A stretch of 64,000 nucleotides of DNA from a virus (Duplodnaviria > Heunggongvirae > Uroviricota > Caudoviricetes), in the IMG/VR virus record IMGVR_UViG_3300046522_000748; one strand, written 5' to 3'. A program made the position numbers and the translations under genes. This document shows positions 1,364 through 61,895 of the stretch, piece after piece. Under the pieces are notes generated by a model. The model had not been told where the DNA came from, did not search any database, and was given only the letters and a program-made list of their open reading frames with translations. Each line of letters opens with the position of its first letter. Within the stretch, counting starts at the first letter, position 1.

Positions 1364-1403
1364 ATTATATAGAACCAGCACACCAGTGTCAACTCAAATG
1401 ACA
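1364..1403 (-). promoter_or_regulatory. sigma70 promoter TTGACA-17-TATAAT with TGTCA-N7-TGACA operator (1387-1403)
   Basis: exact palindrome with arms extended to CCAGTGTCA/TGACACTGG. Confidence 0.85.
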
Positions 1404-1424
1404 CTGGCGCCCGTTGTCGATGGA

Positions 1425-1943
1425 TTATTCACCAGGAAATGGCTGAGGGGATTTTTGATGCTCCCATGCATTTTTCGCGTCATCCAGCCGAGTCTCGCCT
1501 CGCAGGTAGTCGAGGTAAATCAAGTGCTCACTGGACAGGCCATCGCGGTCTGTTTTGATGGCAATCACTCCTTCAATGTTCACGGTCTCAGGGCAGATCA
1601 CAAGATGCTCTGTACCCTCCTCCAGCCCATTACGCTGAATCCAGGCGTTTATGCCTTCCTGATATGTTTTGCCGCCGATAAAAGCGCTGTGGTCTTGATG
1701 GAGTTCGGCCCCAACAATGTTCCGGCGCTCAAAAACAGTCCCATCGCCACGATCAAGTTTGGCATAAATGTGTTCGGCGCAAACGATAACAACCTGAGAG
1801 TTGACCTGATTGATGTATCGGTTGATTGCGGTTGAGCCTACTGGATCAGAAGCAAATCCACTGATTCTCGACCTGAGCGTGTCTAGTGAGCCATCAATGC
1901 TCAAAAACAAAATTCGTTTACTGGCTGGGGTCTTCAGCTTCAT
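1425..1943 (-). CDS. degenerate paralog of the HAD_SAK_2 phosphatase
   Basis: aligns with 756..1337 (TPAxKR..FLxIDG, DPV, EGINAWI, HLIYLDY) but has FLSIDG and lacks the DD motif. Confidence 0.75.
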   Translation of the reverse strand: MKLKTPASKRILFLSIDGSLDTLRSRISGFASDPVGSTAINRYINQVNSQVVIVCAEHIYAKLDRGDGTVFERRNIVGAELHQDHSAFIGGKTYQEGINAWIQRNGLEEGTEHLVICPETVNIEGVIAIKTDRDGLSSEHLIYLDYLRGETRLDDAKNAWEHQKSPQPFPGE

Positions 1944-2042
1944 TTTGAGTGTCCGTCTTGGTTGTCGGAAATAAGTCTCGAATAGCGAGGCATTTTGATC
2001 GTAACAGCCCAGGCAGCAAGCTGTCTGAATTATCCAGCCGGG

Positions 2043-2402
2043 TCAGTCTTGCTTAGCCATCCACCCGAAGGCCTTCTTACCGGCAAGTTTTCGTTCGTAT
2101 TGCGCGATTGCTCTGTCCAGGTCATTGATCTGGATCTTGCGCAGCTTGAGCAGCAGCCAACCGCTGCCCAGCAGAAGCAATGCCAAGACAATAAAAAATG
2201 GCATCATTTTTGAGCTAATGTTGAACAGTGTCAGCACGGTGGTACAGCCCGTACAAAACGCGAACATAGCCATGGTGTGCATGACATCCAGTCGGTCAAT
2301 CTGCTCGGCGCGATTAGCATCAATGGCTGCGGGCTCGGTGGCATTGACCATGGTCAGCAGAGCAACGAATTCATCCCCGGTGGGAATCATGCGCCAGTTC
2401 AT
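2043..2402 (-). CDS. small two-TM membrane protein
   Basis: two hydrophobic segments; abuts upstream gene. Confidence 0.65.
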   Translation of the reverse strand: MNWRMIPTGDEFVALLTMVNATEPAAIDANRAEQIDRLDVMHTMAMFAFCTGCTTVLTLFNISSKMMPFFIVLALLLLGSGWLLLKLRKIQINDLDRAIAQYERKLAGKKAFGWMAKQD

Positions 2403-2780
2403 TTAGCCTCCCGTCTGTGGGCTGGTTTTGAGGTGGTCGATCAATTCGGCAATGATAACTTTGTATTCCTTATCTGTCTTGATCAGATCCATCGCCAAGG
2501 CGGCAACGGCCAAAGCGTCAGCCGTTGCTGCGTTAGCATTCTTCAGCAACTCAAAATCAGGCACCGAGTAATCTTTCACCGCATCAAAGCAGTTGTAGCT
2601 GATGTTGATCGCCCGCCCCTCATGTTCGAAGGTACGATACTGCGGACTCAAGGTGTCACCCACCGTGATGTTCATGCTCATGTGAGGCTCTTTATAGCCT
2701 TTGACCGCGTAACTGACCTTCAAATACGGGCACTGGCGCCGTATTTTGTCACGATTAATGACTCGCTTGAATGTGCCCAT
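2403..2780 (-). CDS. hypothetical protein
   Basis: operon-style packing. Confidence 0.65.
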   Translation of the reverse strand: MGTFKRVINRDKIRRQCPYLKVSYAVKGYKEPHMSMNITVGDTLSPQYRTFEHEGRAINISYNCFDAVKDYSVPDFELLKNANAATADALAVAALAMDLIKTDKEYKVIIAELIDHLKTSPQTGG

Positions 2781-2783
2781 GGC

Positions 2784-3131
2784 TTATTCACTCACCGGAA
2801 AGACCAATGCCTCAAGGGCGTCCATTTGCTCGTGACCCATGTGCTTCGGACGCGAGTGCAGCCTGTCTATTTTCAGGCGAAGATCTTGCCAGCGGGTAGT
2901 GATTGCGCGCTCCGCATCAAACACTTCCTTGCTCGGGTACAGGCGACCTGCGGTGTACTCGGTTTTCTCGGCGCCAGTTTCGAGGTAGAACGTCGCGCCT
3001 GTGGTGTGCAGCAATACGCGACCTACCTTGGTGACTTCCACGGCATGGTTGCGATTGTTGTTGTTCACGTAGTAGGCGGTGTCGCCCTTTTTCAGGCTTT
3101 TGATCCAGTCGATGTGTGTCGAGGTTGTCAT
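2784..3131 (-). CDS. hypothetical phage-type protein
   Basis: first gene after promoter, AGGA RBS. Confidence 0.7.
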   Translation of the reverse strand: MTTSTHIDWIKSLKKGDTAYYVNNNNRNHAVEVTKVGRVLLHTTGATFYLETGAEKTEYTAGRLYPSKEVFDAERAITTRWQDLRLKIDRLHSRPKHMGHEQMDALEALVFPVSE

Positions 3132-3151
3132 GGTTGCGATTCCTGATTTAA

Positions 3152-3259
3152 TGTCAACATGATAAACATATTTTCATATTTTGTCAATGTTTTGTTGAGG
3201 ATCTTGCCGCCTCCGCCAGTGAAAATACCATTGACATTAGTACGTAATGCGCATATAAT
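3152..3259. promoter_or_regulatory. divergent sigma70 promoters; variant operator TGTCA-N7-AAACA at 3152-3168
   Basis: plus TTGACA-17-TATAAT at 3231-3259; minus TTGACA-17-TATCAT. Confidence 0.75.
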
Positions 3260-8815: not shown

Positions 8816-8894
8816 ATTATACGCAAAGCCTAGCTGCCTGTCAATGCCATTGACCAACAATGATCATTGACAGAACCAATACTGAAAATATAAT
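8816..8894. promoter_or_regulatory. divergent sigma70 promoters; operator TGTCA-N7-TGACC at 8839-8855
   Basis: minus TTGACA-17-TATAAT; plus TTGACA-16-TATAAT at 8867-8894. Confidence 0.8.
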
Positions 8895-14575: not shown

Positions 14576-14615
14576 ATTATACCATTGCCTTCCATCAATG
14601 TCAATAACACTGACA
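14576..14615 (-). promoter_or_regulatory. sigma70 promoter with exact operator (14599-14615)
   Basis: TTGACA-17-TATAAT; TGTCA-ATAACAC-TGACA. Confidence 0.85.
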
Positions 14616-16695: not shown

Positions 16696-16714
16696 TATAA
16701 CGCGCTTTAAGTGG

Positions 16715-45953: not shown

Positions 45954-45957
45954 CTTT

Positions 45958-46371: not shown

Positions 46372-46426
46372 AGTGATCACTCAATGGAGAGGTGGTTATT
46401 AGACTCGATGTACAGGCCAGCAGCAA

Positions 46427-46573: not shown

Positions 46574-46633
46574 CGGGCATCTCCCAGAGAATCAAACACA
46601 GCCCACCGCTGGCCAACTTAGGCTGAAAGCCTG

Positions 46634-46903: not shown

Positions 46904-46913
46904 TCTCTGATCC

Positions 46914-47210: not shown

Positions 47211-47244
47211 CGCTGCTGAATTCCGTATTCGACTTTGAGTGCTC

Positions 47245-47284
47245 AGTATACCCAATCACTGGGCGCTTGTCAATTGTGCTGACA
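47245..47284 (-). promoter_or_regulatory. sigma70 promoter with exact operator (47268-47284)
   Basis: TTGACA-17-TATACT; TGTCA-ATTGTGC-TGACA. Confidence 0.85.
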
Positions 47285-47357
47285 TAATCACGAGCGCGAT
47301 CATCCTGCTTGAAGCAACCATATGAGGTATAATTTAGTTTTATTATATGAGAGTGCT

Positions 47358-47861: not shown

Positions 47862-47867
47862 TTCAAA

Positions 47868-47900
47868 TGAGCACTATAGTGCGTGACACTATAGTGCTCA
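47868..47900. repeat. nested palindrome
   Basis: TGAGCACTATAGTG-CGTGA-CACTATAGTGCTCA; each arm contains the self-palindromic CACTATAGTG. Confidence 0.85.
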
Positions 47901-48057
47901 AACTATGCCCAATAGGGCATGCGTATATTTCCATAGCGGCGCACCATAGTACGCTATAAGTAAAAAAGCTCTCACCAGCAAGGCGCTACGGTTTGCCAGC
48001 CAGCAAAAAGGTGTGCTAGTTTTGTTTCACTCCTACAGTCACCAGAGAATTTCGACA

Positions 48058-49131: not shown

Positions 49132-49132
49132 A

Positions 49133-49159
49133 AAAAGCCCGCTCTAAGCGGGCTTTTTT
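49133..49159. terminator. bidirectional terminator
   Basis: AAAAGCCCGC-TCTAA-GCGGGCTTTT between convergent genes. Confidence 0.8.
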
Positions 49160-49172
49160 AATACATCTGAGT

Positions 49173-49430
49173 TTATGCCTTTGCCATCCAGGCTTTCAGT
49201 GTTTCGTCGTCGAACTCGGTAGGTACACCGAGCTTGTCAAATTCGTCGCTCAGGGCCTTGAGTCTGTCCAGGTGATCCTCAGGATCAAGCACTGTCCCAG
49301 GTGCCAGAAAGGATGGGAAGATGTCCATCGCCACCCCAATCATGTTCTCGGCTTTCTCAGGGTACTTGAGACCCAAAGCATTGAAGCGTTTGCCGAGTTT
49401 TTCCATGCCTTCTTGAACGCGAGTATCCAT
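49173..49430 (-). CDS. hypothetical protein
   Basis: GGAG RBS. Confidence 0.65.
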   Translation of the reverse strand: MDTRVQEGMEKLGKRFNALGLKYPEKAENMIGVAMDIFPSFLAPGTVLDPEDHLDRLKALSDEFDKLGVPTEFDDETLKAWMAKA

Positions 49431-49496
49431 TGTCTTCTCCGTAATGTTGTTTTTACCAAAAACCCCGGAAGGCCGGGGTTTGGAAGGCTGAATTGC

Positions 49497-50081
49497 TCAG
49501 GGCATCATGCCGATGATGATTGCCCAATAGATGCCGAGCATAATGATCGTAGTGATGCTCCAGCCGATTGCTGAGGCATCCATCTGCCCCCAGTTCGCGT
49601 AACGAACCACCTCTTTTTTGGTGGGTCGTCTCAGAAAGCCGATGCCTTCAATAACCTCGACGCGATCAAACCAAAATCGGCGGTTGAGCTTTATGACGGC
49701 GTAGGTCAGAAGGATGCCTACACCGGCCCCCAAGATGCTTTTACCCAGTACCATCCAGATCAGGGTTACTGCCGTCAATATGCCCGCAGGACTCGCCAGA
49801 AACTCATTAACGCTGCTGCCGACTTCGTTGGCGGCGATGCCAAGCGCCTTGGCGAACTCCTGAGAGATCTTTGCCCACTCGGAGACATCATCGCGAGTGA
49901 TTTGTGGAACAGCGGCAATCACAGGTGCGGGAGGCTGAGTTTTTAGATCGAGCTTCATCTGTTCGCACTTGACCTTCAGTTCTTGAACCATCGCTTCTGG
50001 TAGGTCGCTGCGAACAATATCGCACGCGAATGTGGGCATCGACATGACTGTCAAAATCAACGCAAACAGGTACTTTCTCAC
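49497..50081 (-). CDS. membrane protein with signal peptide (phage-type)
   Basis: AAGGA RBS, GTG start; W..I..FAKALGIAANEVG.SVNEFL.SPAG. Confidence 0.7.
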   Translation of the reverse strand: MRKYLFALILTVMSMPTFACDIVRSDLPEAMVQELKVKCEQMKLDLKTQPPAPVIAAVPQITRDDVSEWAKISQEFAKALGIAANEVGSSVNEFLASPAGILTAVTLIWMVLGKSILGAGVGILLTYAVIKLNRRFWFDRVEVIEGIGFLRRPTKKEVVRYANWGQMDASAIGWSITTIIMLGIYWAIIIGMMP

Positions 50082-50220
50082 TGAAATATCCTTCGGGCGA
50101 TTTGGCCAAATAACCAGAGTAATACTCTCTATCAGCCACATTGTTTGATGCTTATTATATTTGCAATCAATAATTTGTCAAACGAATAAACAGCCTTTCA
50201 AGGGTTTCACCCTGTGACAT

Positions 50221-50337
50221 TTACAGAGTTTTTTGAAACTCAAAAGCAGCAAATGCCAACAGTGAGAAGAGCCCCATCCAGCCGATGGTTTGGAAGAGTT
50301 TTCCATATTCAGTTTCGTGTTGTTTGGGTTTGGTCAT
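50221..50337 (-). CDS. 38-aa single-TM peptide
   Basis: ATGA overlap with 50334..51062; MTKPKQHETEYGKLFQTIGWMGLFSLLAFAAF... Confidence 0.45.
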   Translation of the reverse strand: MTKPKQHETEYGKLFQTIGWMGLFSLLAFAAFEFQKTL

Positions 50338-51062
50338 GGCTTGGTCTCGCTTTGCGATTGACGCTGGCGTGCGATGGGCACACGGACTCTGCTCATGGGG
50401 TCTGGAAAGCGCCTCTCATCACCAAACACCCACTCGGGGTAGAACCGGCTGGCCAGCGTGGTGGTGAGCTTGAACACTTTTCCTACGGGGATTGTGATGT
50501 CGCCTGTATGCTCATCCCCAAATGAGCGATACGGAACGTCTGGGTTGCCGATAAACATGATTCGACGCTGAATAAAGTCATTGGCGTCAAACATGGCGAG
50601 CATCTGTTCTTGTTTGGTGTTTCGGGCCTTTAGATGCGGGTGTTCGTTTGTAATCCAGCCGCAGTTGGGGATTTTTGGGTATTGTTCAGCGCTGACAATC
50701 GTGATCTGATCGCCCTCTTTGAGGCCCTGGAAATCCTGCTCATGTCCGGGTTTTTGTTCGTCGTACCAGCTTTCCTTTACCACCTGCCAAACATCACCAG
50801 CCTGAAACAGGTTGCTGAACATTTGATGGCGTTTTGCGCAGACCTTGCCCTTGAGCACTCCTATAATGAAATCCCGGAGTTCACGTTGTGCATGATGATG
50901 GCAAGCAAGTTCTTGCTCCTGCGCGCTGATCACAAATTCCGGCACGCCTGGAAACTTGATTTGCACGTTGCCGTTGGCATCTGGGGTGGCGTATGTGAAG
51001 CCATTAGGCTCACAATCGACCGTAATGCGTATGCCATCAACGGTGGTGAATATGGTTGGCAA
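50334..51062 (-). CDS. hypothetical protein
   Basis: GGAG RBS, TTG start. Confidence 0.65.
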   Translation of the reverse strand: MPTIFTTVDGIRITVDCEPNGFTYATPDANGNVQIKFPGVPEFVISAQEQELACHHHAQRELRDFIIGVLKGKVCAKRHQMFSNLFQAGDVWQVVKESWYDEQKPGHEQDFQGLKEGDQITIVSAEQYPKIPNCGWITNEHPHLKARNTKQEQMLAMFDANDFIQRRIMFIGNPDVPYRSFGDEHTGDITIPVGKVFKLTTTLASRFYPEWVFGDERRFPDPMSRVRVPIARQRQSQSETKP

Positions 51063-51127
51063 GACTAAAGGCTCCAGTTAAAGAGTGGCGTGTCGCATAA
51101 TATTGATTTTACTAACCCTACAATGGG

Positions 51128-51250
51128 GGTGAGTTCCAAACTTGTCCAGCGTCGTTCCTAAAGCAGAACTCACATGCTTTCTGACGCTTCGGCGCTGGAC
51201 AAGCTCACCTGAAGTATCTCAGGCAATATCCCGTGAAAAGTTTCACGCAT
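51128..51250 (-). ncRNA. candidate structured leader or small RNA
   Basis: three stems incl. 11-bp CTTGTCCAGCG/CGCTGGACAAG; promoter TTGACT-17-TATTAT at 51258-51286. Confidence 0.5.
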
Positions 51251-51300
51251 TACAGATATAATAATGATCAAACTTTTTACAGTCAAGTCACATGCTGACT

Positions 51301-51765
51301 TCAGCAGAGCTTACTCAGGACTGAACACAAATAATTTGGTCGAATGTAATGCAGGTGGTCATCCTCGACGTTGTGGACGACGGGTAGGCCGCTAGAGTTG
51401 TCCATCATGTAACTGTGATCGTCGCGGATTAGCCAGAGGAAGGTGGTGAGCTGTGTCAGCCCAGCAATCGTACTGAGGTCGGTCAGCCCACCAAACACAT
51501 TGGCAAACATCTGATGGAAAATGACGGGCTCATCGTGCGAGAGAATCAATAGCTTGATGACGGCCTTGTCGTAGTTGCTGTAATCAATGTTGACTGCGCC
51601 CTTGAGCACTTCGCCCATCACCGCCTCGCGCAGCTGCTGGAGGCTGGAGGCAATCGCCGTCATGTTTTCCTGATACTCACCCTGTCGATACAGCTCGGGA
51701 TCAAGCTGACAGTCGGTGCTGAGCTGTTCAATAATCTGAAGGGCGCGGGATTTTTGATCGCTCAT
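51301..51765 (-). CDS. hypothetical protein
   Basis: after promoter. Confidence 0.7.
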   Translation of the reverse strand: MSDQKSRALQIIEQLSTDCQLDPELYRQGEYQENMTAIASSLQQLREAVMGEVLKGAVNIDYSNYDKAVIKLLILSHDEPVIFHQMFANVFGGLTDLSTIAGLTQLTTFLWLIRDDHSYMMDNSSGLPVVHNVEDDHLHYIRPNYLCSVLSKLC

Positions 51766-51791
51766 GATGCGTACTCTTGTTTAATGACACG

Positions 51792-51831
51792 ATCATACCG
51801 CGCCCAGGACAAATTGTCAATGTCAGTGACG
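51792..51831 (-). promoter_or_regulatory. sigma70 promoter with 1-mismatch operator TGTCA-N7-TGACG
   Basis: TTGACA-17-TATGAT. Confidence 0.8.
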
Positions 51832-52047
51832 CTCTGGCAATTGACCAATCTCATCGATGATCTGTTGCGTCAGTACGTCATTGAAAGGTGCGTTATAGCC
51901 GTTGGCCTGCACGCTCCGCAAAAGCTTGGCCAGCCGAGTTGATCGGCCTTGTTCTTGCTGGAGCAGCCACAGCGCCCTCTCCAGCTTGGTTTCGGCGCTT
52001 TCCTCTTGGGCATCTGGCGCCTGTGATTTCATGGATGGAGTGGGCAT
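51823..52047 (-). CDS. hypothetical protein
   Basis: TAAGGAG RBS. Confidence 0.6.
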   Translation of the reverse strand: MPTPSMKSQAPDAQEESAETKLERALWLLQQEQGRSTRLAKLLRSVQANGYNAPFNDVLTQQIIDEIGQLPERH

Positions 52048-52057
52048 TAGATGCTCC

Positions 52058-52618
52058 TTATTCGATGTAGAAGGGGAGCAGAGATTCAAGTTGTGAGAAC
52101 TGCTCCAGGGCCGTAAAGCTCTGCATCTGAGTGACGCCCTTGATCAGGTTTTGAAGTTCCTGGCGCCATGGAGTGTCGTGCCTCAACTGCCACACTTCCC
52201 ACATGGTATTGATCACTGGCAGAAATTTTACGGCGAGAAAGCGCGTATTTTCTCTGACTTCATGTCGTGCAAGGTACACGTCTTGTTTAAGTTTAATAAC
52301 CGGATCAGTGGACTCCAGCACTATCTCTTCACACAAGGTTACGTGGGTTACATTTGGGTTGGCTTGCACTGGTCTGGGGCGCATCAGCATTTCCAGATTG
52401 ACCGTGCGCATGGCGATAAGCTTCTGGTCATCGGGTTTTATCATTTTAAACCCGCCATCACGTTGGCTGTCGATGAGAAAGTCCAGCATCCACGACATGA
52501 AACGTTTTTGATGTTCAGCTGCTGTTCTCACCAGAGCAAGATCGGCTTCCAATTGCTGGATTATCATCGGTGACGGTGAATGTTTATCAGCGTCGATGGG
52601 GGCTAGGTATCCAGTCAT
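52058..52618 (-). CDS. hypothetical protein
   Basis: TAATG overlap. Confidence 0.65.
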   Translation of the reverse strand: MTGYLAPIDADKHSPSPMIIQQLEADLALVRTAAEHQKRFMSWMLDFLIDSQRDGGFKMIKPDDQKLIAMRTVNLEMLMRPRPVQANPNVTHVTLCEEIVLESTDPVIKLKQDVYLARHEVRENTRFLAVKFLPVINTMWEVWQLRHDTPWRQELQNLIKGVTQMQSFTALEQFSQLESLLPFYIE

Positions 52619-53097
52619 TAGGACACCAGACCTGCCAATGCTTCCACTTCAAGGAAGATGGAATACGGAATCGATTCGGCATCTTCGTCGTCAGTGCGCG
52701 CCAGTGTAATCAGGCATTCTTCGCGCCGAACAATTTCAAAGGCCACACCGTCACTCAGATCTTCCACAAGGCCCAACATCACACTCAGTTCAAGGTAAGA
52801 ACCGGGTTTGTAATCAAAATGACCCATGCCCTCTACCAATACCGCGTACCAATCTGGCGCACCGTTACTGAGGCACAGCAGTTCGACTAGCATTTCCGAG
52901 CAATATTGCCAATCTTCTGGCGAATTTTTGATATCGCGCTCAATTACGCCGCGCATACGCGCAGTCAGAGATGGGATTTGTTCCAGGCCGATCAGATCCT
53001 TATCCAGCATGGCCTGATCCAACAGCGCTTTTTCTCTTTTCTCAAGAATACGCAGCGCTTCGTATTTGCGGTTTTCAGATTTCCGTGATGTCATCAT
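52618..53097 (-). CDS. hypothetical protein (tandem paralog of 53108..53482)
   Basis: REKALLDQA..IPSL..RMRGVIE..LVELLC..PDWY. Confidence 0.7.
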   Translation of the reverse strand: MMTSRKSENRKYEALRILEKREKALLDQAMLDKDLIGLEQIPSLTARMRGVIERDIKNSPEDWQYCSEMLVELLCLSNGAPDWYAVLVEGMGHFDYKPGSYLELSVMLGLVEDLSDGVAFEIVRREECLITLARTDDEDAESIPYSIFLEVEALAGLVS

Positions 53098-53107
53098 CGT
53101 ATCCAGG

Positions 53108-53482
53108 TCAGTGCAATTTTTTGAGTTGTTGCTGGCGAATCTGGAGTTCCTGCATACTGATATCCTGGACATAATCCAGAATCAGCTCAAGACCAGCATA
53201 AGTCTCTGGCCCGTAATAATCATCCACACATTTTTGCATCAACAGCTTGTACATGTCGGGGTAATCAGCGCCCGTGCAGAGCAGTTCAATCAAAAAATCG
53301 GAGCCAAATAGACCTTCATTACCGTGTTCCAGAACTGAACGCATGCGCTGTATTAGCTCAGGAATGGCCTTTATGGCTGGCTGATCACCTTCTTGCTCGG
53401 CAGCTTCCAACAACACTTTTTCCCGCTGATTAAGAAAGTTGTGGGCAATCTCTTTTCGTCTTTCTCGCAAGGTCTGCGTCAT
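53108..53482 (-). CDS. hypothetical protein (tandem paralog of 52618..53097)
   Basis: REKVLLEAA..IPEL..RMRSVLE..LIELLC..PDMY. Confidence 0.7.
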   Translation of the reverse strand: MTQTLRERRKEIAHNFLNQREKVLLEAAEQEGDQPAIKAIPELIQRMRSVLEHGNEGLFGSDFLIELLCTGADYPDMYKLLMQKCVDDYYGPETYAGLELILDYVQDISMQELQIRQQQLKKLH

Positions 53483-53550
53483 TACGGCTCCCTAATTCAA
53501 GATCAGCCATTTTCGTTCGAATATTTGTTAAACGCAACTCGCTCTGTGAT

Positions 53551-53988
53551 CTACTTCGCTATGTGCTGAAAAAAAAGATTGGCGGCTCGGGTGATATAAA
53601 GCCACTCCGTTTCACTGGCGCCTTTGATCAGCACCTCTCGGACTGTCATTTCCCTGCCGTCACCAACAATCTCATCCAACAAGAACAGCAGGACATTGAA
53701 GTCGCCTTCTTTTCCGTCAAAGAGCTGGATGAATTCTGCCAGTCGATCAAGTGGCTTGCCATGATGAAACTGGCAGCCGGGAATCAGCTCAGAGCCGTCT
53801 GCATTGGTGTAGGAAAGCAGCTCTTTGCGAGCAACACGTTCGCTTACGTCTGCTGAAGTTATCGACAACAACGCAGCGGCCTGCGTAAACGTCAGCAGTC
53901 CATGGTTCATTTGAATATAGGCATCAAGATTGAGCTTTGCTTGAGCGCGCTTCAGCAGTTTGTCTTCTGTACGGCTTTCTATGGACAT
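53551..53988 (-). CDS. putative HTH DNA-binding or antitoxin-like protein
   Basis: GLLTFTQAAALLSITSADVSERV..LL....PGCQF. Confidence 0.6.
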   Translation of the reverse strand: MSIESRTEDKLLKRAQAKLNLDAYIQMNHGLLTFTQAAALLSITSADVSERVARKELLSYTNADGSELIPGCQFHHGKPLDRLAEFIQLFDGKEGDFNVLLFLLDEIVGDGREMTVREVLIKGASETEWLYITRAANLFFQHIAK

Positions 53989-54032
53989 GATGTGCTCTTA
54001 ATAATTGGAAAACTACGTTTAGATATTTAAAC

Positions 54033-54070
54033 AAACCCCGATTACTGCATGATTACCGTAATCGGGGTTT
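54033..54070. repeat. 13-bp inverted repeat (terminator or operator)
   Basis: AAACCCCGATTAC-N12-GTAATCGGGGTTT. Confidence 0.7.
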
Positions 54071-54150
54071 GGGGTGTTTCTAATCCATCATCGGGGCCTT
54101 TAAGAAAAACAACTTTACCGTTTCACGAAGAGGCCCAGCGGGTGGCTGGG

Positions 54151-55104
54151 TTAGGAGAACCGCCCAAGGCTGTCATCGGTCGCGATATTGGCGATTTCGA
54201 CTGCCGCAACGCCACCCAGGACTGCTGCGCCTGCCATTGAGGCCGCAGAGGCGAGCGAGGCGCTGCCGCTGTTGTCAGATGGGCTCTGGAAGGAATCGCT
54301 GTCTTGAGACGTGCTGTAGTCGCTGGAGGCACCACCGCCGCCGAAGCCGCCACCTTGGCCACGGAAAACCTCGGTTTCGGTTTCAACCTGACGCGCAGGT
54401 TCGGTTACCACGTCAATCAGCAGCGTGCGCATGGAGGTCGGAATACCGGTCACCATGTACAGCAGCAAGTCATCATCGCTGGTACGACCGGTGGCGTAGT
54501 TCGACGAGCTTGAGCTGAAGGAACTGACGTGCGCAGACGGACGTTTGTGAGCCGGAACGTGGCCAGCGCGCACCGTCTTGTTGATCTGAGTGATTTGCTC
54601 ACGCAGCTGTACCGGAATGGGCGCAGTGCTCTTGCGAGCTTGCTGCATCAGCTTCAGCAGTTCGCGGGTTTCGCTGCTTTGCTTGTTTAGCGAGGTCTTC
54701 TGCGCTGCCAACTGCGACAGATCTACGTCCATCGCACGCAATTGGCCGTATTTAGCCTGATCCAGATAGCTGGCAAGGCGTGTTTGCAGCAGTGCCAGTT
54801 TCTGGCGGTAGGCTTTACCGGCGAAAAGGCCGAAGATTTTTTCGTTGTCAGCAAAACCTTCCTTAACCGCCGAGGTTACGAACGCAGGAACCTCTTCGCG
54901 CAGCAGCTTCAACACCGAACCAGAAACTGCTGGAAGCAAGCGCTCCACCGTTTCGGTCAGGTATGTTTTGCGCTGACGGGTCACATCCTTGATCGTTTCG
55001 TCCGTGGCGTCGATGCGGCGCTCAATTGCTTCGGCTGCCCGCGACAGAGCCGATACGGCTTCGTCCAGATCTTTGTTGTTTGTGTCTACCATGAGGGACT
55101 CCAT
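54151..55104 (-). CDS. coiled-coil protein with Gly/Ser-rich tail
   Basis: TAATG coupling to upstream gene; GQGGGFGGGGAS. Confidence 0.7.
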   Translation of the reverse strand: MESLMVDTNNKDLDEAVSALSRAAEAIERRIDATDETIKDVTRQRKTYLTETVERLLPAVSGSVLKLLREEVPAFVTSAVKEGFADNEKIFGLFAGKAYRQKLALLQTRLASYLDQAKYGQLRAMDVDLSQLAAQKTSLNKQSSETRELLKLMQQARKSTAPIPVQLREQITQINKTVRAGHVPAHKRPSAHVSSFSSSSSNYATGRTSDDDLLLYMVTGIPTSMRTLLIDVVTEPARQVETETEVFRGQGGGFGGGGASSDYSTSQDSDSFQSPSDNSGSASLASAASMAGAAVLGGVAAVEIANIATDDSLGRFS

Positions 55105-56030
55105 TAGTCGGTCAATGCGTCGTCTTCACGGCGACTGGCAAAGTAGTTGATGAAATATTGTTTGAGACTTGGTTTTTCCATGCTCAGCGACCATTCGATA
55201 GGAGAGCCTGGAGCGATGTACAAATCTGTCCACGGATCAAAACCCAGATCGGTGATTTCGTGCATGCGCAGGAAGTAACGACGGTTTACCGCGTCACCGT
55301 GCCACAGGTGGCGAATCTGGCCTGGAACCACGCCGAGACTGCCTTGAACGAGTTCGTAGAAACGGTTGCCCCATTCTTTCAGGTGGTCGATCTGGCGCTG
55401 GTCGTGCTTGAGCGCATTCACGATACAGAAGTTGTAGTCGCCGTAGATCGCGTGGGCCATGAAATGGTCAGCGCTGCCCGAAACGGCGCACTCGTACAGG
55501 CCCACTTCATCGAAGATTTCGCGACGCATTGCCCAACCGTAACCGGTGTGGCCATGTACGTCATAACGACCGGCATTGAGTTGTTCGGGTTCGCGGTTCA
55601 TGACCGAAGCGAAGGACTCGGAAATGTCGGGGGTTTCGCCCACAACATTGCCTTTTTCCAGTCGTAGTGCGGTTTCAAAGACTTGCGCCACTTTGTGCGT
55701 ACGCAGGGTACTGACCAAATCTTTGACCCAATTCTGGTTGTCGAACAGGATGTCGCAATCCAGCCATGCCACGTACTTGCAGCTGCTTGGTAGCCAGGAC
55801 GCCGCCAGATTCAGCAGGCGCTCTTTTTGCCACAGCAGGGTATTGGAGCGCACGCGGATAACGTCGAGGGATTCCTGAAGCTCAAATGGCTCATTATCAA
55901 AAGCACATTCGACAGTGATGCACATCACACCTGCTTTGCGCATGTCGTCCATGAACAAGTCATAGTTTTGGCGTCGAGACGCCCAGCGGCATGGGTTGAA
56001 GTAGGTGGTAATGACAACGAGTTCGTTCAT
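55104..56030 (-). CDS. GT-A fold glycosyltransferase-like protein
   Basis: LVVITTYFNP, WQKERLLN, YVAWLDCDI (DxD), GSAD, IRHLWHG. Confidence 0.7.
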   Translation of the reverse strand: MNELVVITTYFNPCRWASRRQNYDLFMDDMRKAGVMCITVECAFDNEPFELQESLDVIRVRSNTLLWQKERLLNLAASWLPSSCKYVAWLDCDILFDNQNWVKDLVSTLRTHKVAQVFETALRLEKGNVVGETPDISESFASVMNREPEQLNAGRYDVHGHTGYGWAMRREIFDEVGLYECAVSGSADHFMAHAIYGDYNFCIVNALKHDQRQIDHLKEWGNRFYELVQGSLGVVPGQIRHLWHGDAVNRRYFLRMHEITDLGFDPWTDLYIAPGSPIEWSLSMEKPSLKQYFINYFASRREDDALTD

Positions 56031-56126
56031 TGAATTGACCTTGTTGGTGCAATCGGTGTGAATGACCGTAAAAACGGAGTTTCTTTGATATTACCTATTC
56101 AGGCCAACATCTCAGGTTATGGCGAT

Positions 56127-56166
56127 ATTATACATATCGACACACGCCATGTCAACCTGAATGACT
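56127..56166 (-). promoter_or_regulatory. sigma70 promoter with 1-mismatch operator TGTCA-N7-TGACT
   Basis: TTGACA-17-TATAAT. Confidence 0.8.
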
Positions 56167-56185
56167 CAGCGCTGGCTGAGCAAAA

Positions 56186-56647
56186 TCAGCAATAGCCGTC
56201 ACCCGTGTATTCCATCAGCAGGGTGTTGTCACTGAAGTCAAATCCGATGGCCCTTGCATAGGGGTTGCGAATTTCCGGCCTGCCTTGTAGGCCAGAGGCG
56301 TTCCAGGCATTGTTAAACTTCTCACCGTAGGCCTTAGCCCATCGATGCGCCATCGTCCAGTTGCAACCTGCGGATATATTATTCACACAACCGCTTTGAA
56401 CCATCAGGCAGGTGGGCTGTGAATGCTCGCCTCGTGCCTGGGCCTCATTAGTGCCGCGCAGGTGGTAGTTGTAAGCGTCCTCCAGAATTTGGCTCAACTG
56501 CTCAAATCCTGGGCGCTTGCAGGTCATTTTTACCTGATGAATATTGTAGATCGAGTCACCGATGATCCTTGCGGTAGACCCAGAGGCCAGCTCTTTCAGC
56601 GCGCCATTTTTGTGTGCTGCACGCATTTCTTCAAGGGAATAGAGCAT
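56186..56647 (-). CDS. hypothetical protein
   Basis: after promoter. Confidence 0.7.
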   Translation of the reverse strand: MLYSLEEMRAAHKNGALKELASGSTARIIGDSIYNIHQVKMTCKRPGFEQLSQILEDAYNYHLRGTNEAQARGEHSQPTCLMVQSGCVNNISAGCNWTMAHRWAKAYGEKFNNAWNASGLQGRPEIRNPYARAIGFDFSDNTLLMEYTGDGYC

Positions 56648-56674
56648 GGGATTTCTCTGTGTTAATTTCAGTCT

Positions 56675-56746
56675 ATGATACCTGATTGCTGAATTTTTGT
56701 CAATCTGTTTGACATCGATTGACGTGAGCGCAACCCTTGGTATAAT
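56675..56746. promoter_or_regulatory. divergent promoters sharing an exact operator (56698-56714)
   Basis: minus TTGACA-17-TATCAT; plus TTGACG-16-TATAAT. Confidence 0.85.
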
Positions 56747-56772
56747 TGAGTATTAATCAGGCGGGAGCCGAT

Positions 56773-57234
56773 ATGTACCTTCAACGAACGCACTCCGATT
56801 CCTATGTGGATGATGTCTCCCTTTTTATCAAATTGAGCATCAATAAAAGGGAAATGTTGCAGGCCGGTCGCCACTCAGACGAGGATGCCGATAAGGTTCG
56901 GGAACAGGCATACGCGCTGGGAGAGTCGATCAACGTCATATTTTCTGACAACATTGAAGTGATGTTTGGCAAAAACTCGGTGGACATGCCGAATTTCAGT
57001 GTGGTGGATTTTGATCGGGCCAATGAAGATGCCGACACTCAATTCTATGAATTTGTCTTCATTGTTCAAGGTTCTCATGGGCTGAATTTCACCCAAATTC
57101 GCGAAGTGCATGATTTGATCATGGCTATTGCTAAGAAGGCGACCGAAGGAACAACCAATATCGTTCACTTCAGTCAGATTAAGAGCGTTCAGCAGATCCG
57201 ATCTTCAGAAACAGAGATCTACGCGGCAAGCTGA
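56773..57234 (+). CDS. hypothetical protein
   Basis: GGGAG RBS. Confidence 0.7.
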   Translation: MYLQRTHSDSYVDDVSLFIKLSINKREMLQAGRHSDEDADKVREQAYALGESINVIFSDNIEVMFGKNSVDMPNFSVVDFDRANEDADTQFYEFVFIVQGSHGLNFTQIREVHDLIMAIAKKATEGTTNIVHFSQIKSVQQIRSSETEIYAAS

Positions 57235-57236
57235 CA

Positions 57237-57270
57237 AAAAGAAAGGCCGGTAATCACCGGCCTTTCTTTT
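57237..57270. terminator. bidirectional terminator
   Basis: AAAAGAAAGGCCGG..CCGGCCTTTCTTTT. Confidence 0.8.
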
Positions 57271-57284
57271 GTGGATGAGCCTGC

Positions 57285-57719
57285 CTATAGCGACAGTCTG
57301 TGCTTGATACCTAGCAGCTCCTCTCGAAGCCCCAGGCACCCTTCCCCACGTTCAATTTCCAGCTGGTATTCGAACCCGCGCAGTGACACCATGCAGAAGA
57401 GATACATTTCGGTCTTATCGACTGTACAGTTTTCAACTAGTTGTCGATTAGCCAAAACGTAGGCCTTATTTCGCGCTAGCGTTTTTTCACTCATGTCCCC
57501 TGAATAAAAAACAAAGACAAAGAGTGCTGTCGCGCCCAGTGCAAACCATACAAAGAACTGTTGGCCCAACAGTCCTTCCATGTACATAAATATCAGAGTT
57601 TCAACAATTAGCAAGATAGCACCACCGATAATGAGTGGCACTTTGAGTGACGGCCATCGCGGGATAGCGGGTAGCGGTGGTGGAGCAAAATTACTACTCA
57701 ACAGTGTCTCCTTAATCAA
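57285..57719 (-). CDS. two-TM protein (tandem paralog of 57716..58132)
   Basis: YVLANRQLVENC...CLGLREELLGIK. Confidence 0.7.
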   Translation of the reverse strand: MIKETLLSSNFAPPPLPAIPRWPSLKVPLIIGGAILLIVETLIFMYMEGLLGQQFFVWFALGATALFVFVFYSGDMSEKTLARNKAYVLANRQLVENCTVDKTEMYLFCMVSLRGFEYQLEIERGEGCLGLREELLGIKHRLSL

Positions 57720-58132
57720 TCATTAGCTGCGGGCGGGCTTCGTTTGATCCCTAGAAAATCTTCTCGCAAATTCAGGCATATCGGTCCGGCTGCAACTTCA
57801 ATCCACTCTCTGATATTCTTGAGTTTCACATGGCAGGTCATTCCGCCCGCGCTATCGACTCTGACTTCGCAGTCAGTGATTTGTTCGCGATTGGCGAGGG
57901 CGTACTCTTTCGCAGCGCGCTCTTTGTTGTTACTGTTTTCACCCCAGTAAAGAACCGCTGTGAACAGAATGATTGCAAGCGCAAATGTCGCAAGTCCTTC
58001 ACCATTCAGGTCAGTGAACAACCAAAAAATACCGACAATGATGCCGACAATGATTACAGCGAGCGCAAATGATTTTTTTACAACCGACAGAACGGAAGGC
58101 GTGCGGATGACTTGATTGATACTTTTCATCAT
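57716..58132 (-). CDS. two-TM protein (tandem paralog of 57285..57719)
   Basis: YALANREQITDC...CLNLREDFLGIK. Confidence 0.7.
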   Translation of the reverse strand: MMKSINQVIRTPSVLSVVKKSFALAVIIVGIIVGIFWLFTDLNGEGLATFALAIILFTAVLYWGENSNNKERAAKEYALANREQITDCEVRVDSAGGMTCHVKLKNIREWIEVAAGPICLNLREDFLGIKRSPPAAND

Positions 58133-58608
58133 GTTGATTCTCCGGTACTCAGCAGTCTGCGAAGTTCTTCCAGACGCTCTTTAGTTGAGCCTCGGTAGTC
58201 GTACTTACCGTCTTCAAATATTTTCCAGCAATGGGTTTCAACGCGCTGCCAATGTTCCTGGGTAATCTTTTTGGCAAGCGCGGTTTCCAGCAGCTTCATG
58301 CGCTGTTGGGCGTAGAGCATCTCATGGCTGTTGACCAGAAAGCCATCTTTGAAGCTTTCAAGGGCCACGGCATACGCATCCCCTTCTGGAAGCTTGCCAG
58401 CGCGCAGTAGAGTGCGCTCTTCAAACTTTGCCTTCAGGGCTGCGTCGTTGTAATCAAAGACATCGCCTAGTGTCGTGTTAAGCAGGCTGATCAGGTCGTC
58501 GAGGCTCCAGCTGGAAAACATGAATCCTCCAGTCTCGGCAGGTTGTGTGCTGGTGAATTCGACCACGTTGGACGATGCAATCGACCATGCTACCGGGATA
58601 TTACTCAT
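58129..58608 (-). CDS. hypothetical protein
   Basis: ATGA overlap. Confidence 0.65.
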   Translation of the reverse strand: MSNIPVAWSIASSNVVEFTSTQPAETGGFMFSSWSLDDLISLLNTTLGDVFDYNDAALKAKFEERTLLRAGKLPEGDAYAVALESFKDGFLVNSHEMLYAQQRMKLLETALAKKITQEHWQRVETHCWKIFEDGKYDYRGSTKERLEELRRLLSTGEST

Positions 58609-58780
58609 TGGAATTGTCCTTTTCGATTAGATACTTCTGGCAGCGCTTGCACGACACATGGCGTGCATTCTTGGTGCCGATCCATTTGGTAGGCGAATCG
58701 CGATCCAGGCCGCACGCAGAGGCTGCATAGTACACGCCATTGGTTTTACCTGCGGAGACAAGAAGGTGCATTTTGGACAT
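58601..58780 (-). CDS. 59-aa zinc-finger-like protein
   Basis: AAGGAG RBS; MH...SACG...VSCKRC; below ORF-track cutoff. Confidence 0.6.
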   Translation of the reverse strand: MSKMHLLVSAGKTNGVYYAASACGLDRDSPTKWIGTKNARHVSCKRCQKYLIEKDNSNE

Positions 58781-58812
58781 GCGGATTTACTCCTTGCCAT
58801 GATCGCGACAGG

Positions 58813-59157
58813 TCATGCCGCAAGCTCAGATGCAGTGCATTCGTAGTTGAATAGCTCATGATGGGCTTTCCAGAAACCGTCGCTTTCGCGGATCAGGCTC
58901 CAGATTTCACTATCAACGCCGGGGGTCGAGTCAACGACACCAATGGCGCGGAAGCCTTTATGGAAGTTGTAACCATGCCATTCACTGGCATTGACTGGGA
59001 ATTTCGTGCAGATGCTGGACTTTTCAGGGGTGCTGCATTCGAACCACTCAACGATTTCGTCTGCATACTTGTCCAGCAGCGCCAGGAGCTGTTTGTCTTC
59101 AGTGCTGGAGGCTCTTTCTCGGAAAGTGCTCATAAACTGTTCGAGTGTCACGCTCAT
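58813..59157 (-). CDS. hypothetical protein
   Basis: after promoter. Confidence 0.65.
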   Translation of the reverse strand: MSVTLEQFMSTFRERASSTEDKQLLALLDKYADEIVEWFECSTPEKSSICTKFPVNASEWHGYNFHKGFRAIGVVDSTPGVDSEIWSLIRESDGFWKAHHELFNYECTASELAA

Positions 59158-59194
59158 CTCTGGCCACCTAGAAACTTCAATTAATCACCCACCC

Positions 59195-59234
59195 ATAATA
59201 AGCTGTTTATGTGATTTTGTCAATGAAAATGACA
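59195..59234 (-). promoter_or_regulatory. sigma70 promoter with exact operator (59218-59234)
   Basis: TTGACA-17-TATTAT; TGTCA-ATGAAAA-TGACA. Confidence 0.85.
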
Positions 59235-59249
59235 GTTTGACAGCCTGTT

Positions 59250-59663
59250 TCAAGGTAGCCAGCAATGCGCGAAGTTCCTCTCACTCGCCCAGCCTGCATG
59301 ATGCCGGTTAAGATACTCGGTAATGCAGTCGCGACTGTCCTGATCCAGCTCCGATGTTCTTAGGTTGGCAATGATGACCTCCTTTGGTACGGTCTGGAGA
59401 TAATCACCATAGCCCTTTCTGGCCCGGCTCAAGAAAGCTCGATGACTGATGATAAATATCAGCAGCGGGATTATCGATGCGAATGTCAGCAACTGCATGA
59501 TTTGAGGGAAAGTGCTTTCATTGTTAATTATTCCAGCAACTACCAGCAAGGCAGTAAAGGGCATCGGTGCTGCCATCATCAATGCGATAAAGAAAAGGCT
59601 TTTTATCGGCACTTCGGTATGCCCAAAATCGGAAACGAGCTTCATCTGAGTTATCCAGTGCAA
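59250..59663 (-). CDS. two-TM membrane protein
   Basis: two hydrophobic helices. Confidence 0.6.
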   Translation of the reverse strand: MHWITQMKLVSDFGHTEVPIKSLFFIALMMAAPMPFTALLVVAGIINNESTFPQIMQLLTFASIIPLLIFIISHRAFLSRARKGYGDYLQTVPKEVIIANLRTSELDQDSRDCITEYLNRHHAGWASERNFAHCWLP

Positions 59664-59669
59664 AGTTTT

Positions 59670-60275
59670 TTAATGAACAGAAGTCTGCGAGTTAGCGGAT
59701 CTTTCAATGCCGTCATTCATTGCGCCGAAGAACGATTCTCGCGCCATCTTAAAGGTCACATGCATCGGTGGGACAGCCGCTGCGACAAACGAAAACACCA
59801 GTTCTTCACCCAAATAGGCATTAAGGCAATCTTCGTTCATGTCGATCTTGAAGGCGTCTTTATCATAGCCACGGAGCTTGGCAATATGATGAGCATGGCG
59901 CGTCATGGTGATGGAGGGATCTTCATGCGCGAACAAAAAACCTGATTGATGATTGAGTCCATCCGCATTCATGATCAGGCCTGTAATCACATATGCTTCC
60001 GTTTCATTGAATATTTCATGCGCCGCCTTAATTGCCTCCAAAGTGGAATCGAGGTCTGTCTTGATGTGATCGGCGTAAATCTTGAGATCTTTCTTGGTTG
60101 CCGGTTTAATTGTTCGGATGGCGTGATGAACTGGTCTCAGCATTTCATTCAGCTCCTCCTTCAAATCAATCAGTTCTGCTGGTGGAAATTGCACCAATAC
60201 CTTCTGCCCCGAGGCATTTTGTCCGATCTTCTTGAGTTCATCATGACCAACGAGTGTAACGAGAAAAGATTGCAT
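59670..60275 (-). CDS. hypothetical protein
   Basis: GGAG RBS; TTGCCA-16-CATAAT promoter upstream. Confidence 0.7.
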   Translation of the reverse strand: MQSFLVTLVGHDELKKIGQNASGQKVLVQFPPAELIDLKEELNEMLRPVHHAIRTIKPATKKDLKIYADHIKTDLDSTLEAIKAAHEIFNETEAYVITGLIMNADGLNHQSGFLFAHEDPSITMTRHAHHIAKLRGYDKDAFKIDMNEDCLNAYLGEELVFSFVAAAVPPMHVTFKMARESFFGAMNDGIERSANSQTSVH

Positions 60276-60385
60276 AGTTAGCTCCGCCTATAATTATTTG
60301 AATATTATGCCTTGTTTTTTAACAATGGCAAATAAAAAGGGGTGACACCTAAGTGCCACCCCTCCGTTGGGCATGAGCCTGTTAA

Positions 60386-60796
60386 TCAGTGGCTCTTCAG
60401 CATCCAGCTAATGTCGTTTTCATTTTCACGAACAATCTGATTAGGTGCAGCTTGAGCCGCTGCATTGAGCTGATTGGCTCGTTCGGCAACCACCGCAGCT
60501 CTGGCTCGGAAAGCATCCACCACCAGCTTGCAGCCCTCCTCCATGTCTTCTTCGGTACATTGAAGCATGTACTCTGGCAGCAGGTCATTGCCGCTCAGCA
60601 CCGGCTTTAGCAGCGTATCGAATTTCACCCGGCGCCCACTCGGTTTTTCGTAGTAGCTGGAGGCCTTTTTCACCTTCAGGGGCGTGACCATGACTTGCAG
60701 GCAGGCGGTATTGCTCTCGCGATCCGTCTCCAGGCCAGCGCGAATGTGCAAGAGTGTGTGGCTGTAGTCTTCGGGCTTTTTGCTGTGCGAAGCCAT
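60386..60796 (-). CDS. hypothetical protein
   Basis: 136 aa ORF. Confidence 0.65.
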   Translation of the reverse strand: MASHSKKPEDYSHTLLHIRAGLETDRESNTACLQVMVTPLKVKKASSYYEKPSGRRVKFDTLLKPVLSGNDLLPEYMLQCTEEDMEEGCKLVVDAFRARAAVVAERANQLNAAAQAAPNQIVRENENDISWMLKSH

Positions 60797-60869
60797 TATC
60801 GTGATATCCAGAAAAAATCAGTGGCTGGAGCCTCAATAGAGGCTCCGCTTGCGAGTGTTCGTTCGATTG

Positions 60870-61370
60870 TCAGATCATTGTGACGCGAATGAGACTGTCG
60901 TAGGGATTTTTTGGGATCACGTTTTCGAACTCGACGATCAGATTTCCTTTGCGAGCCGCGTTGGACCAATGGTACAGCACTTCCGGCAGGATCAAATCCC
61001 TGTACTTGCCTGTGCTGATTTCCCGCTCTGCGGCTACGCCCCAATGCCGGTGGGTCATGTCGTCATGCGGGAATTTTTCCTTGAGGATATCCACACTCGT
61101 GTTGCCTACAAATTCGTCTTGGGTGTCGTATACCCAGGGCATGTCGAATGCCTTGAATTCACCGGTTTTCGGATCTTCGCTCCCGAAACAGAAAACGGCC
61201 AATCGGCCTTTTCTTGCCAGTTCCAACCAATGAGCAGCAACATCTTCACTGCTTGTGTGGCTGAAGAGCGGCTGATCACGGGCTTTTTCACAGAATTGTT
61301 CGGCGGTGTAGCCTTTCGGGTCAATCAAAGGCATCAATTGTGCAATGGATTCGCTTACTGGGGTTTTCAT
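60870..61370 (-). CDS. hypothetical protein
   Basis: start adjusted to MKTPVS. Confidence 0.65.
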   Translation of the reverse strand: MKTPVSESIAQLMPLIDPKGYTAEQFCEKARDQPLFSHTSSEDVAAHWLELARKGRLAVFCFGSEDPKTGEFKAFDMPWVYDTQDEFVGNTSVDILKEKFPHDDMTHRHWGVAAEREISTGKYRDLILPEVLYHWSNAARKGNLIVEFENVIPKNPYDSLIRVTMI

Positions 61371-61395
61371 TGGCTGAAGGTCTCGAATTGAAGGC

Positions 61396-61791
61396 TCAGT
61401 GTACGTGAGCGAAATCAGGTTGGTAGTGTGGCAGTTGACGCAGCAACAGGTGATCCAGCAGGCGACTGAAGGCCATAAGAGCGCCCAGCAGCGGCAGGAT
61501 ATCAATCATTCGGCCCAAAGCGTTTCCGTTGGGGTTGGCGATGATGAGCGAGATTGTCAGCAGAGCCAGAGGCAAGAAGAGCAGGGCCGCACCCACAGCC
61601 CACCATGCGCTCAGATCGTTGCCCAGTTCGCGGCGCTGATGAGCACGAAAGACCAGCCAGCCCGTGCCGATACACGCCATCCAGGCGAACGTATAGGTGC
61701 CATTCTCGGTTGAGACTTCAAAGAATGCGCACAGCAGGGCGAAAGTCAGCCATGCTGCGAGGTGAATCAAAACTGTCGATGAGGTTTTCAT
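61396..61791 (-). CDS. four-TM membrane protein
   Basis: hydrophobic; after promoter 61820-61858 (variant operator TGTCA-N7-AAACA). Confidence 0.7.
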   Translation of the reverse strand: MKTSSTVLIHLAAWLTFALLCAFFEVSTENGTYTFAWMACIGTGWLVFRAHQRRELGNDLSAWWAVGAALLFLPLALLTISLIIANPNGNALGRMIDILPLLGALMAFSRLLDHLLLRQLPHYQPDFAHVH

Positions 61792-61895
61792 GATTGAATT
61801 CCGATTTATCTGTACCGCAATTATAAGCCCTATTGCAAAATTGTCAATACAAAAAACAAAACCAGCCGAAGCTGGTTGTTGTGGCCGGAATTTGC

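Follow-up and report, generated by a model that had tools for sequence, protein, structure and literature searches.

The DNA described here is a 64,000-nt stretch filed as virus record IMGVR_UViG_3300046522_000748 (the window, to which all counts in the window refer), and is part of a soil plasmid of ~1.1 Mb. The gene-called form of its helix-turn-helix (HTH) protein lies on a Joint Genome Institute (JGI) contig of 1,136,521 bp, of which the window makes up ~6%. The window has 102 called genes, 81 of them on the minus strand, and a large number of exceptionally good sigma70 promoters. Here we describe a 17-bp palindrome that is built into the -35 region of more than half of these promoters and discuss its probable role as the operator of a single repressor. 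The arrangement is of interest against the background of a wider puzzle, namely how plasmids of ~1 Mb with hundreds of uncharacterised genes keep from crippling the cells that carry them.

A palindrome built into strong promoters

A scan for TTGACA-N16-18-TATAAT with no more than one mismatch in total found 33 near-consensus sigma70 promoters in the window, of which 25 lie on the minus strand; a second scan limited to positions 40001-60000 found ten promoters matching the consensus at 11 or 12 of its 12 bases. The perfect form, TTGACA-N17-TATAAT, is present 11 times in the 64 kb, with none in shuffled sequence and none in either E. coli K-12 (4.64 Mb) or pMPPla107 (972 kb), the MPF_I-type megaplasmid of Pseudomonas amygdali pv. 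lachrymans (NZ_CP031226.1). A start codon with a Shine-Dalgarno sequence follows 20-31 nt past most of the promoters, indicating that these are real and compact expression signals. Quite apart from the palindrome, this style of promoter is an outlier in its own right.

The palindrome, TGTCA-N7-TGACA, occurs in 13 exact copies, all of them at the coordinates listed in an initial annotation of the window, where 0.21 copies are expected from dinucleotide-preserving shuffles; none of 100 shuffles contained more than two. The spacing of the arms is strict. A spacer of seven accounts for the 13 copies and any other spacer between 0 and 20 for none or one, the everted arrangement of the arms is at background, and other pentamer palindromes at N7 reach at most three copies each. 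Allowing a single mismatch adds 12 sites to the window. Six of these (including 2747, 3318, 26611, 32942 and 56934) lie away from promoters, and about this many would arise by chance. The other six had been picked out in the initial annotation and are all present, five of them (8839, 25790, 33345, 51815 and 56150) with one arm within the -35 of a promoter, as is the case for all 13 exact copies, but the sixth, at 29140, lies outside any -35 and merely near a promoter (Table 1). A position weight matrix (PWM) of 19 columns, built from the 19 operator sites defined below and applied with a cut-off of 16 bits, found ~20 distinct sites in the window and none in Markov-simulated null sequence. E. 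coli K-12 and pMPPla107 contain three palindromes each. The regulon signal in cis is real and statistically overwhelming; in the literature, searches under several notations of the motif found no match.

The coupling between palindrome and promoter is equally tight. In 13 of 13 exact copies one half-site is part of a TTGACA that is followed, after 16-17 nt, by a hexamer no more than one mismatch away from TATAAT, just as the initial annotation had described. Among the 33 strong promoters the distal arm is exact in 13, has one mismatch in six and has two or more mismatches in 14, so that 19 promoters (13 exact and six near copies) can be called operator-bearing, fewer than the 25 or so first estimated. 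Operator-bearing promoters favour a 17-bp spacer between -35 and -10 (16 of 19, versus six of 14 operator-less promoters; Fisher p = 0.024), with eight of the 14 operator-less promoters having a 16-bp spacer. In the operator-less promoters too the TTGACA is perfect, and its distance from the -10 is unchanged. That promoters of equal quality exist without the distal arm indicates that TTGACA is the true -35 and that no activator is required.

Table 1. Predicted operator-promoters, atypical and degenerate copies of the palindrome, and selected genes of the window
Position	Strand	Feature	Palindrome	-35 and -10	Remarks
756-1337		HAD_SAK_2 phosphatase gene			Behind operator-promoter 1364-1403(-)
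1364-1403	-	Operator-promoter	Exact (1387-1403)	TTGACA-17-TATAAT	Drives HAD_SAK_2 gene
3139-3157	-	Degenerate copy	ATGTTTATCATGTTGACAT	-10 TATCAT	Encloses -10 of promoter 3187(-)
8816-8855	-	Operator-promoter	Distal arm GGTCA (1 mismatch)	TTGACA-17-TATAAT	Back to back with operator-less promoter 8867(+)
14576-14615	-	Operator-promoter	Exact	Perfect
16378-16695	-	HTH_3 gene			Only recognisable HTH gene in window; Y4mF/HipB antitoxin family (TIGR03070, 7.5e-14)
17512-17550	-	Operator-promoter	Exact	16-bp spacer, TATAAT
20116-20155	-	Operator-promoter	Exact	-10 TAGAAT
21052-21091	-	Operator-promoter	Exact	-10 TAGAAT
25767-25806	-	Operator-promoter	Distal arm TGTAA (1 mismatch)	Perfect	Up to 9 genes behind
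29140-29156	.	Palindrome in atypical place	1 mismatch		~10 bp upstream of -35 of promoter 29129(-)
32489-32528	-	Operator-promoter	Exact	-10 CATAAT
33345-33383	+	Operator-promoter	Distal arm TGACA (1 mismatch)	16-bp spacer	Drives 340-aa backbone gene 33411-34433
34451-34490	+	Operator-promoter	Exact	Perfect	Heads rightward cluster including mazE/mazF
35674-36368	+	MazE/MazF-like pair			Within cluster headed by exact-operator promoter at 34462
37952-37990	+	Operator-promoter	AGTCA-N7-TGACT (symmetric outer change)	-35 TTGACT
41005-41044	-	Operator-promoter	Exact	Perfect
42641-42680	-	Operator-promoter	Exact	Perfect	Terminator hairpin directly before
44160-44199	-	Operator-promoter	Exact	Perfect	Drives orphan-family gene 43318-44127
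45544-45562	-	Degenerate copy	ATGTTTATACTATTGACAT	TTGCCT-17-TATACT	Encloses -10 TATACT of this weaker promoter
47245-47284	-	Operator-promoter	Exact	-10 TATACT
51792-51831	-	Operator-promoter	Distal arm CGTCA (1 mismatch)	-10 TATGAT
56127-56166	-	Operator-promoter	Distal arm AGTCA (1 mismatch)	Perfect	Drives glycosyltransferase-like pair 55104-56030 / 54151-55104
56675-56714	-	Operator-promoter	Exact	-10 TATCAT	Overlaps divergent promoter 56719(+)
59195-59234	-	Operator-promoter	Exact	-10 TATTAT	Additional TGTCA 11 bp further upstream (start to start)

To describe the site further, the 33 promoters were aligned on their -35 hexamers and the information content of each position was calculated. 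Besides the -35 and -10 hexamers, only five to seven positions between -46 and -40 (T G T C A t T) carry information; it is near zero at the 29 positions further upstream and at the three central positions of the dyad. A fixed spacing and a variable spacer sequence had been noted in the initial annotation. In the numbering of a promoter with a 17-bp spacer, the distal arm occupies -46 to -42 and the proximal TGACA -34 to -30, placing the dyad centre at -38. The proximal arm is bases 2-6 of TTGACA and the distal arm is its exact reverse complement, so that the palindrome can equally be written TGTCAA-N5-TTGACA. The copy at 37952, also reported in the initial annotation, has both outer bases changed symmetrically (AGTCA...TGACT), as would be expected of a site bound by a dimer.

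Two further readings of this region were considered and rejected. The distal arm might have been the -35 of a divergent promoter, but in the 33 aligned promoters there is no conservation at the place where the opposing -10 would be expected. Similarly, the A at -36 and the T at -40 do not form a symmetric extension of the arms: the A is found in 13 of the 14 operator-less promoters, and the association of the T is not significant.

The promoters do not appear to be recent copies of one another. No repeat family longer than 36 nt joins promoter regions within the window, and the only direct repeat shared between them is a single 32-nt pair at 72% identity. This, together with the absence of flanking similarity, suggests that it is selection that keeps the arm. 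Additional GTCA or TGTCA half-sites are seen 9-20 bp upstream of the operators at 59218-59245, 56698-56730, 51815-51850 and 8839-8880, and might allow a second dimer to bind cooperatively.

The initial annotation also listed a recurrent half-site variant, AAACA. This turns out to be a mixture. The instances at 14229 and 61842 are the T-tracts of terminator hairpins abutting a -35, whilst those at 3152 and 45557 belong to degenerate copies that lie over a -10. The 19-mers at 3139-3157 and 45544-45562 are near-identical (ATGTTTATnnTnTTGACAT), with a TGACA arm near +1 and PWM scores of 13-15 bits. They may represent a second, weaker placement of the operator, over -10/+1, or at such scores could have arisen by chance.

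Predicted repression and its alternatives

We consider it probable that the 17-bp palindrome is the operator of one dimeric repressor that occludes the -35. The two-fold symmetric 5-base arms, the fixed 7-bp spacer and the symmetric double change at 37952 together point to a dimer, and a protein reading TGACA at -34 to -30 must compete with region 4 of sigma70, which argues for repression. One dimeric DNA-binding protein, perhaps a repressor, had been put forward in the initial annotation, and the proposal fits well with the strict spacing, the position at -38, the activator-free promoters, the dissimilar flanks and the lack of enrichment in E. coli or pMPPla107.

The repressor would most likely be a small protein of the HTH type whose gene lies elsewhere on the 1.14-Mb element. 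Once bound, the dimer would take up the major groove (-34 to -30) on which sigma70 region 4 depends, and this occlusion would shut off promoters that are otherwise expected to be constitutive and very strong. Some 19 promoters would be switched jointly and these, by simple assignment, head up to ~59 of the 102 predicted genes of the window, with 26 genes placed behind other strong promoters. On entry into a repressor-free cell the promoters may fire in a burst before being silenced; such zygotic induction on transfer is suggested by analogy with plasmid R388 (PMC3937220).

Several observations weigh against this reading. The distal TG(T) is enriched in operator-less promoters too (G in nine of 14, p = 0.002), which hints at a promoter-intrinsic element, and the partial distal arms may thus be either a graded series of sites or the traces of such an element. 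No gene for the binding protein was recognised in the 64-kb window, and the initial annotation's suggestion that the regulator is encoded by the element finds no candidate there, within the 64 kb covered of ~1.14 Mb. Nor does the window contain a homologue of KorA or ArdK, repressors whose genes are usually autoregulated: phmmer searches with R388 ArdK and KorA against all stop-to-stop open reading frames (ORFs) gave E >1, and there was no KORA/TrfB Pfam match. The HTH_3 protein makes an unlikely global regulator, as it is a member of a local antitoxin family and has what appears to be its own promoter. A TATAAT is located seven bases before the ATG chosen by the gene caller (start 16686, 102-aa form; 16686-16700, minus strand), which suggests a weak promoter of its own and a leaderless mRNA, as is the case for lambda cI transcribed from PRM.

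If the regulator is not encoded by the element, it could be encoded by the host: the element's promoters would have evolved to respond to a chromosomal repressor, with the cargo silenced, or released, in step with a host signal. Whilst the lack of a recognised regulator gene in the window would be in keeping with this, the palindrome is at background in E. coli K-12, in pMPPla107 and in 401 sampled genomes (~1-Mb genomes with no plausible host group among them), and the known global regulators of large plasmid regulons, KorA, KorB and ArdK, are plasmid-encoded (PMC9723621, PMC3937220). A host regulator therefore seems unlikely to us. A different possibility is that there is no repressor and that RNA polymerase itself, or a sigma factor encoded by the element, reads the distal TGT(CA) as an intrinsic upstream part of the promoter that raises or tunes its strength. 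The enrichment of TG(T) at -46 to -44 even without the full arm is what would be anticipated in this case, an A is present at -36 in nearly all promoters, operator or not, and the distant relative pMPPla107 encodes a sigma70-family factor of its own. Nevertheless, the arm and the -35 core are exact reverse complements of each other, which speaks for a two-fold symmetric binder, the arm is missing from 14 of 33 equally good promoters, and in one copy both outer bases have changed symmetrically. The sequence TGTCA is also unlike that of UP elements, which are A/T-rich and read in the minor groove. On balance we regard an intrinsic element as improbable.

The dyad overlaps the -35 region in the manner of the class II sites of CRP and FNR, and some phage activators bind dyads ending in TGT...ACA (TGT-N12-ACA in the case of P2 Ogr). 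A class II-type activator, or a factor that appropriates sigma over the -35, might therefore recruit RNA polymerase to these promoters. This we find very hard to reconcile with -35 and -10 hexamers that are perfect or nearly so, since activator-dependent promoters have a poor -35. In addition, the geometry of CRP/FNR class II sites is not seen (their 5-N6-5 core has no copies at N6, and the centre is at -38 rather than -41.5), and the proximal arm lies on the very bases contacted by sigma70 region 4. Finally, the motif could be a relic without present function of its own, descended from a single promoter cassette that multiplied by duplication, as with the CUP repeats of pKM101. There are several tandem paralogue pairs in the window that might be cited in its favour. 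However, information is ~0 away from the arm and the two promoter hexamers, the promoters share no repeat family above 36 nt, and the paralogues are only 23-39% identical, so that any neutral flanks would by now have been randomised, whereas 13 copies retain an exact arm. We consider a relic of this sort to be extremely improbable.

Comparison with known repressor systems

Repression of the kind that we favour has its closest documented counterpart in R388, as the initial annotation recognised when it drew attention to ArdK. The ArdK protein of R388, a 102-aa member of the KorA family, represses five establishment promoters by means of repeated TTGACA sequences next to the -35 (PMC9723621). 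In the crystallised operator, GTATTGACACCTATTGACA, one of the repeats is the -35, and the recognition helix of ArdK resembles that of sigma70 region 4 (PMC9723621). Our own census of R388 found only four near-consensus promoters, all of the form TTGACA-N4-TTGACA-N17-(C/G)ATAAT and all of them ArdK targets. The window resembles this system (and ArdK of pKM101) in that a strong sigma70 promoter has a -35 TTGACA that is one arm of the operator, with a second arm about one helical turn upstream. In the logic proposed, each also relies on one small repressor that keeps a number of small-gene operons tightly shut and lets them burst into expression on transfer; the R388 network combines strong promoters with tight negative feedback, leading to transcriptional overshoot after conjugation (PMC3937220).

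The differences are nonetheless clear. The arms in the window are inverted (TGTCAA-N5-TTGACA), whereas those in R388 are direct (TTGACA-N4-TTGACA); the direct-repeat form TTGACA-N3..5-TTGACA has no copies in the window. KorA-family proteins recognise repeats of either orientation at spacers between 0 and 6, inverted ones among them in branches other than the ArdK clade, whose arms are direct repeats of TTGACA 3-6 bp apart; ArdK of R388 tolerates inverted arms only at spacers of 3-4 (PMC9723621), and the N5-equivalent spacer seen here is beyond that range. There are 19 promoters in 64 kb, in place of five in R388, and the targets are orphan cargo without establishment genes of the ardC/ssb type in the Pfam results.

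One may speculate that an ArdK-type mimic of sigma70 region 4, turned to an inverted-repeat mode of binding, locks hundreds of perfect promoters across the 1.14-Mb plasmid. The orphan cargo would then form one switchable unit, silent and cheap when resident and expressed in one burst on entry. This extended version of the model is tentative, and we would not expect it to hold in full. Were it true, it would describe a regulon under a single operator far larger than any other known from a mobile element, and would explain in general terms how giant plasmids can bear the cost of strong promoters in their hundreds.

Similarities to other systems are more limited. In IncP-1 plasmids (RK2/RP4), KorA, KorB and KorC also place many strong promoters under short palindromic operators. 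The class I operators of KorB have their centre ~39-40 bp ahead of the start site, near the -38 centre seen here. Unlike in the window palindrome, however, the -35 hexamer does not serve as an arm in the Kor operators, and the IncP-1 operators OA (GTTTAGCTAAAC) and OB (TTTAGCSGCTAAA) have no matches in the window with one mismatch or fewer. RK2 has about a dozen sites, mostly at backbone genes; the sites in the window are mostly on orphan cargo. The operators of lambdoid CI and Cro likewise comprise a 17-bp dyad, for which an HTH dimer is expected, and overlap the core promoter so as to occlude it, but these are found in clusters of three at two promoters that form a bistable switch, rather than as single sites at ~20 dispersed promoters. 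Neither a CI/Cro pair nor phage structural genes were found in the window in PHROG and annotation scans. In contrast to the CUP cassettes of pKM101, the window has no long conserved repeats carrying promoter and operator together. The LexA/SOS box was also considered and rejected: the window motif is TGT-N11-ACA with invariant CA/TG inner bases, whereas the gammaproteobacterial LexA box is CTGT-N8-ACAG, a 16-bp dyad.

The kind of system described here is thus known from small conjugative plasmids. What is new is the geometry, the unusually large scale and its presence on a giant element whose distant relatives lack it. The window has a cis-regulatory code that is legible in the DNA itself, with a perfect consensus promoter about every 6 kb and more than half of the strong promoters tied to one putative operator over the -35. 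If one repressor does control them, the expression of most dark-matter genes of the element would come within reach through it, and the principle by which a strong promoter and a tight repressor produce a burst on transfer would be extended from 30-kb plasmids to those of megabase size.

Relatives and gene content of the element

No DNA matches to the window, near or distant, were found in PLSDB or INPHARED. At the protein level, pMPPla107, which like the present element is a giant replicon with mostly hypothetical genes, encodes a hypothetical protein that shares 42% identity with the 340-aa backbone protein (33411-34433) along its entire length, and genes on two JGI contigs, one of 942 kb, encode proteins 42-43% identical to this backbone protein. 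The flanks of this shared gene in the distant relatives, including the two metagenome contigs, contain neither the palindrome nor consensus promoters. The rarity of palindromes and the absence of perfect promoters in pMPPla107, and the lack of palindromes and consensus promoters in the flanks of the relatives, indicate that the promoter style and the regulon belong to the element's own lineage and are not a family trait. In pMPPla107 itself, the near-consensus promoter of the sigma70-family gene (~700712-700754) has a TTGACA followed by a tight palindrome, TGACAATTGTCA, in the spacer. As a parallel regulon this was rejected: TGACAATTGTCA has a single exact copy in the plasmid, consistent with a local operator derived from -35-like arms.

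The operator sequence provides a practical tag for related elements and for the regulator's own gene. Searches of viral contigs with the composite operator and promoter pattern gave only scattered single matches, a background of ordinary consensus promoters; in genome contigs there were, among the matches listed, again only scattered single ones, which is uninformative. Loci related to the orphan family A2 were not found in metagenome or viral contigs, nor were loci related to the HTH protein found in viral contigs. The HTH protein does have homologues at 78 and 75% identity, the latter on a 96.7-kb JGI/ENA contig; these, and the Logan homologues of a cargo protein described below, show that the element has closer relatives than pMPPla107.

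The proteome of the window is acidic (median isoelectric point 5.6, with 61% of proteins below 6) and largely uncharacterised. Only 16 Pfam families were matched by 118 predicted ORFs, among them DUF4419, DUF2807, MazE/MazF, HAD_SAK_2, RNA ligase, ProQ-C-like, GIY-YIG nuclease, NACHT ATPase, GT2-like and HTH_3. About 30 PHROG families were matched in the window, mostly without an assigned function, and PADLOC gave weak matches only. The initial annotation saw the genes behind the palindrome as candidates for host takeover or anti-defence, which the Pfam results do not bear out: no Ard, SSB, PsiB or KlcA family, and no other known anti-restriction type, was found among the 118 ORFs. Nothing marks the cargo as anti-defence or host-takeover genes; most targets are orphans, for which a hidden role in establishment is possible.

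An example of such orphans is a family of paralogues of ~270 aa encoded at 41082-41900, 43318-44127 and 44273-45058, which are 23-26% identical to one another. The family has only three homologues among 5.8 billion proteins; relative to the cargo protein of 43318-44127 these are 96, 67 and 62% identical, and all three come from Logan assemblies. Elsewhere in the window, the ORF at 16776-17192 contains an internal tandem duplication of ~139 nt (16784-17069, 74% identity), giving rise to a small protein made up of two repeats.

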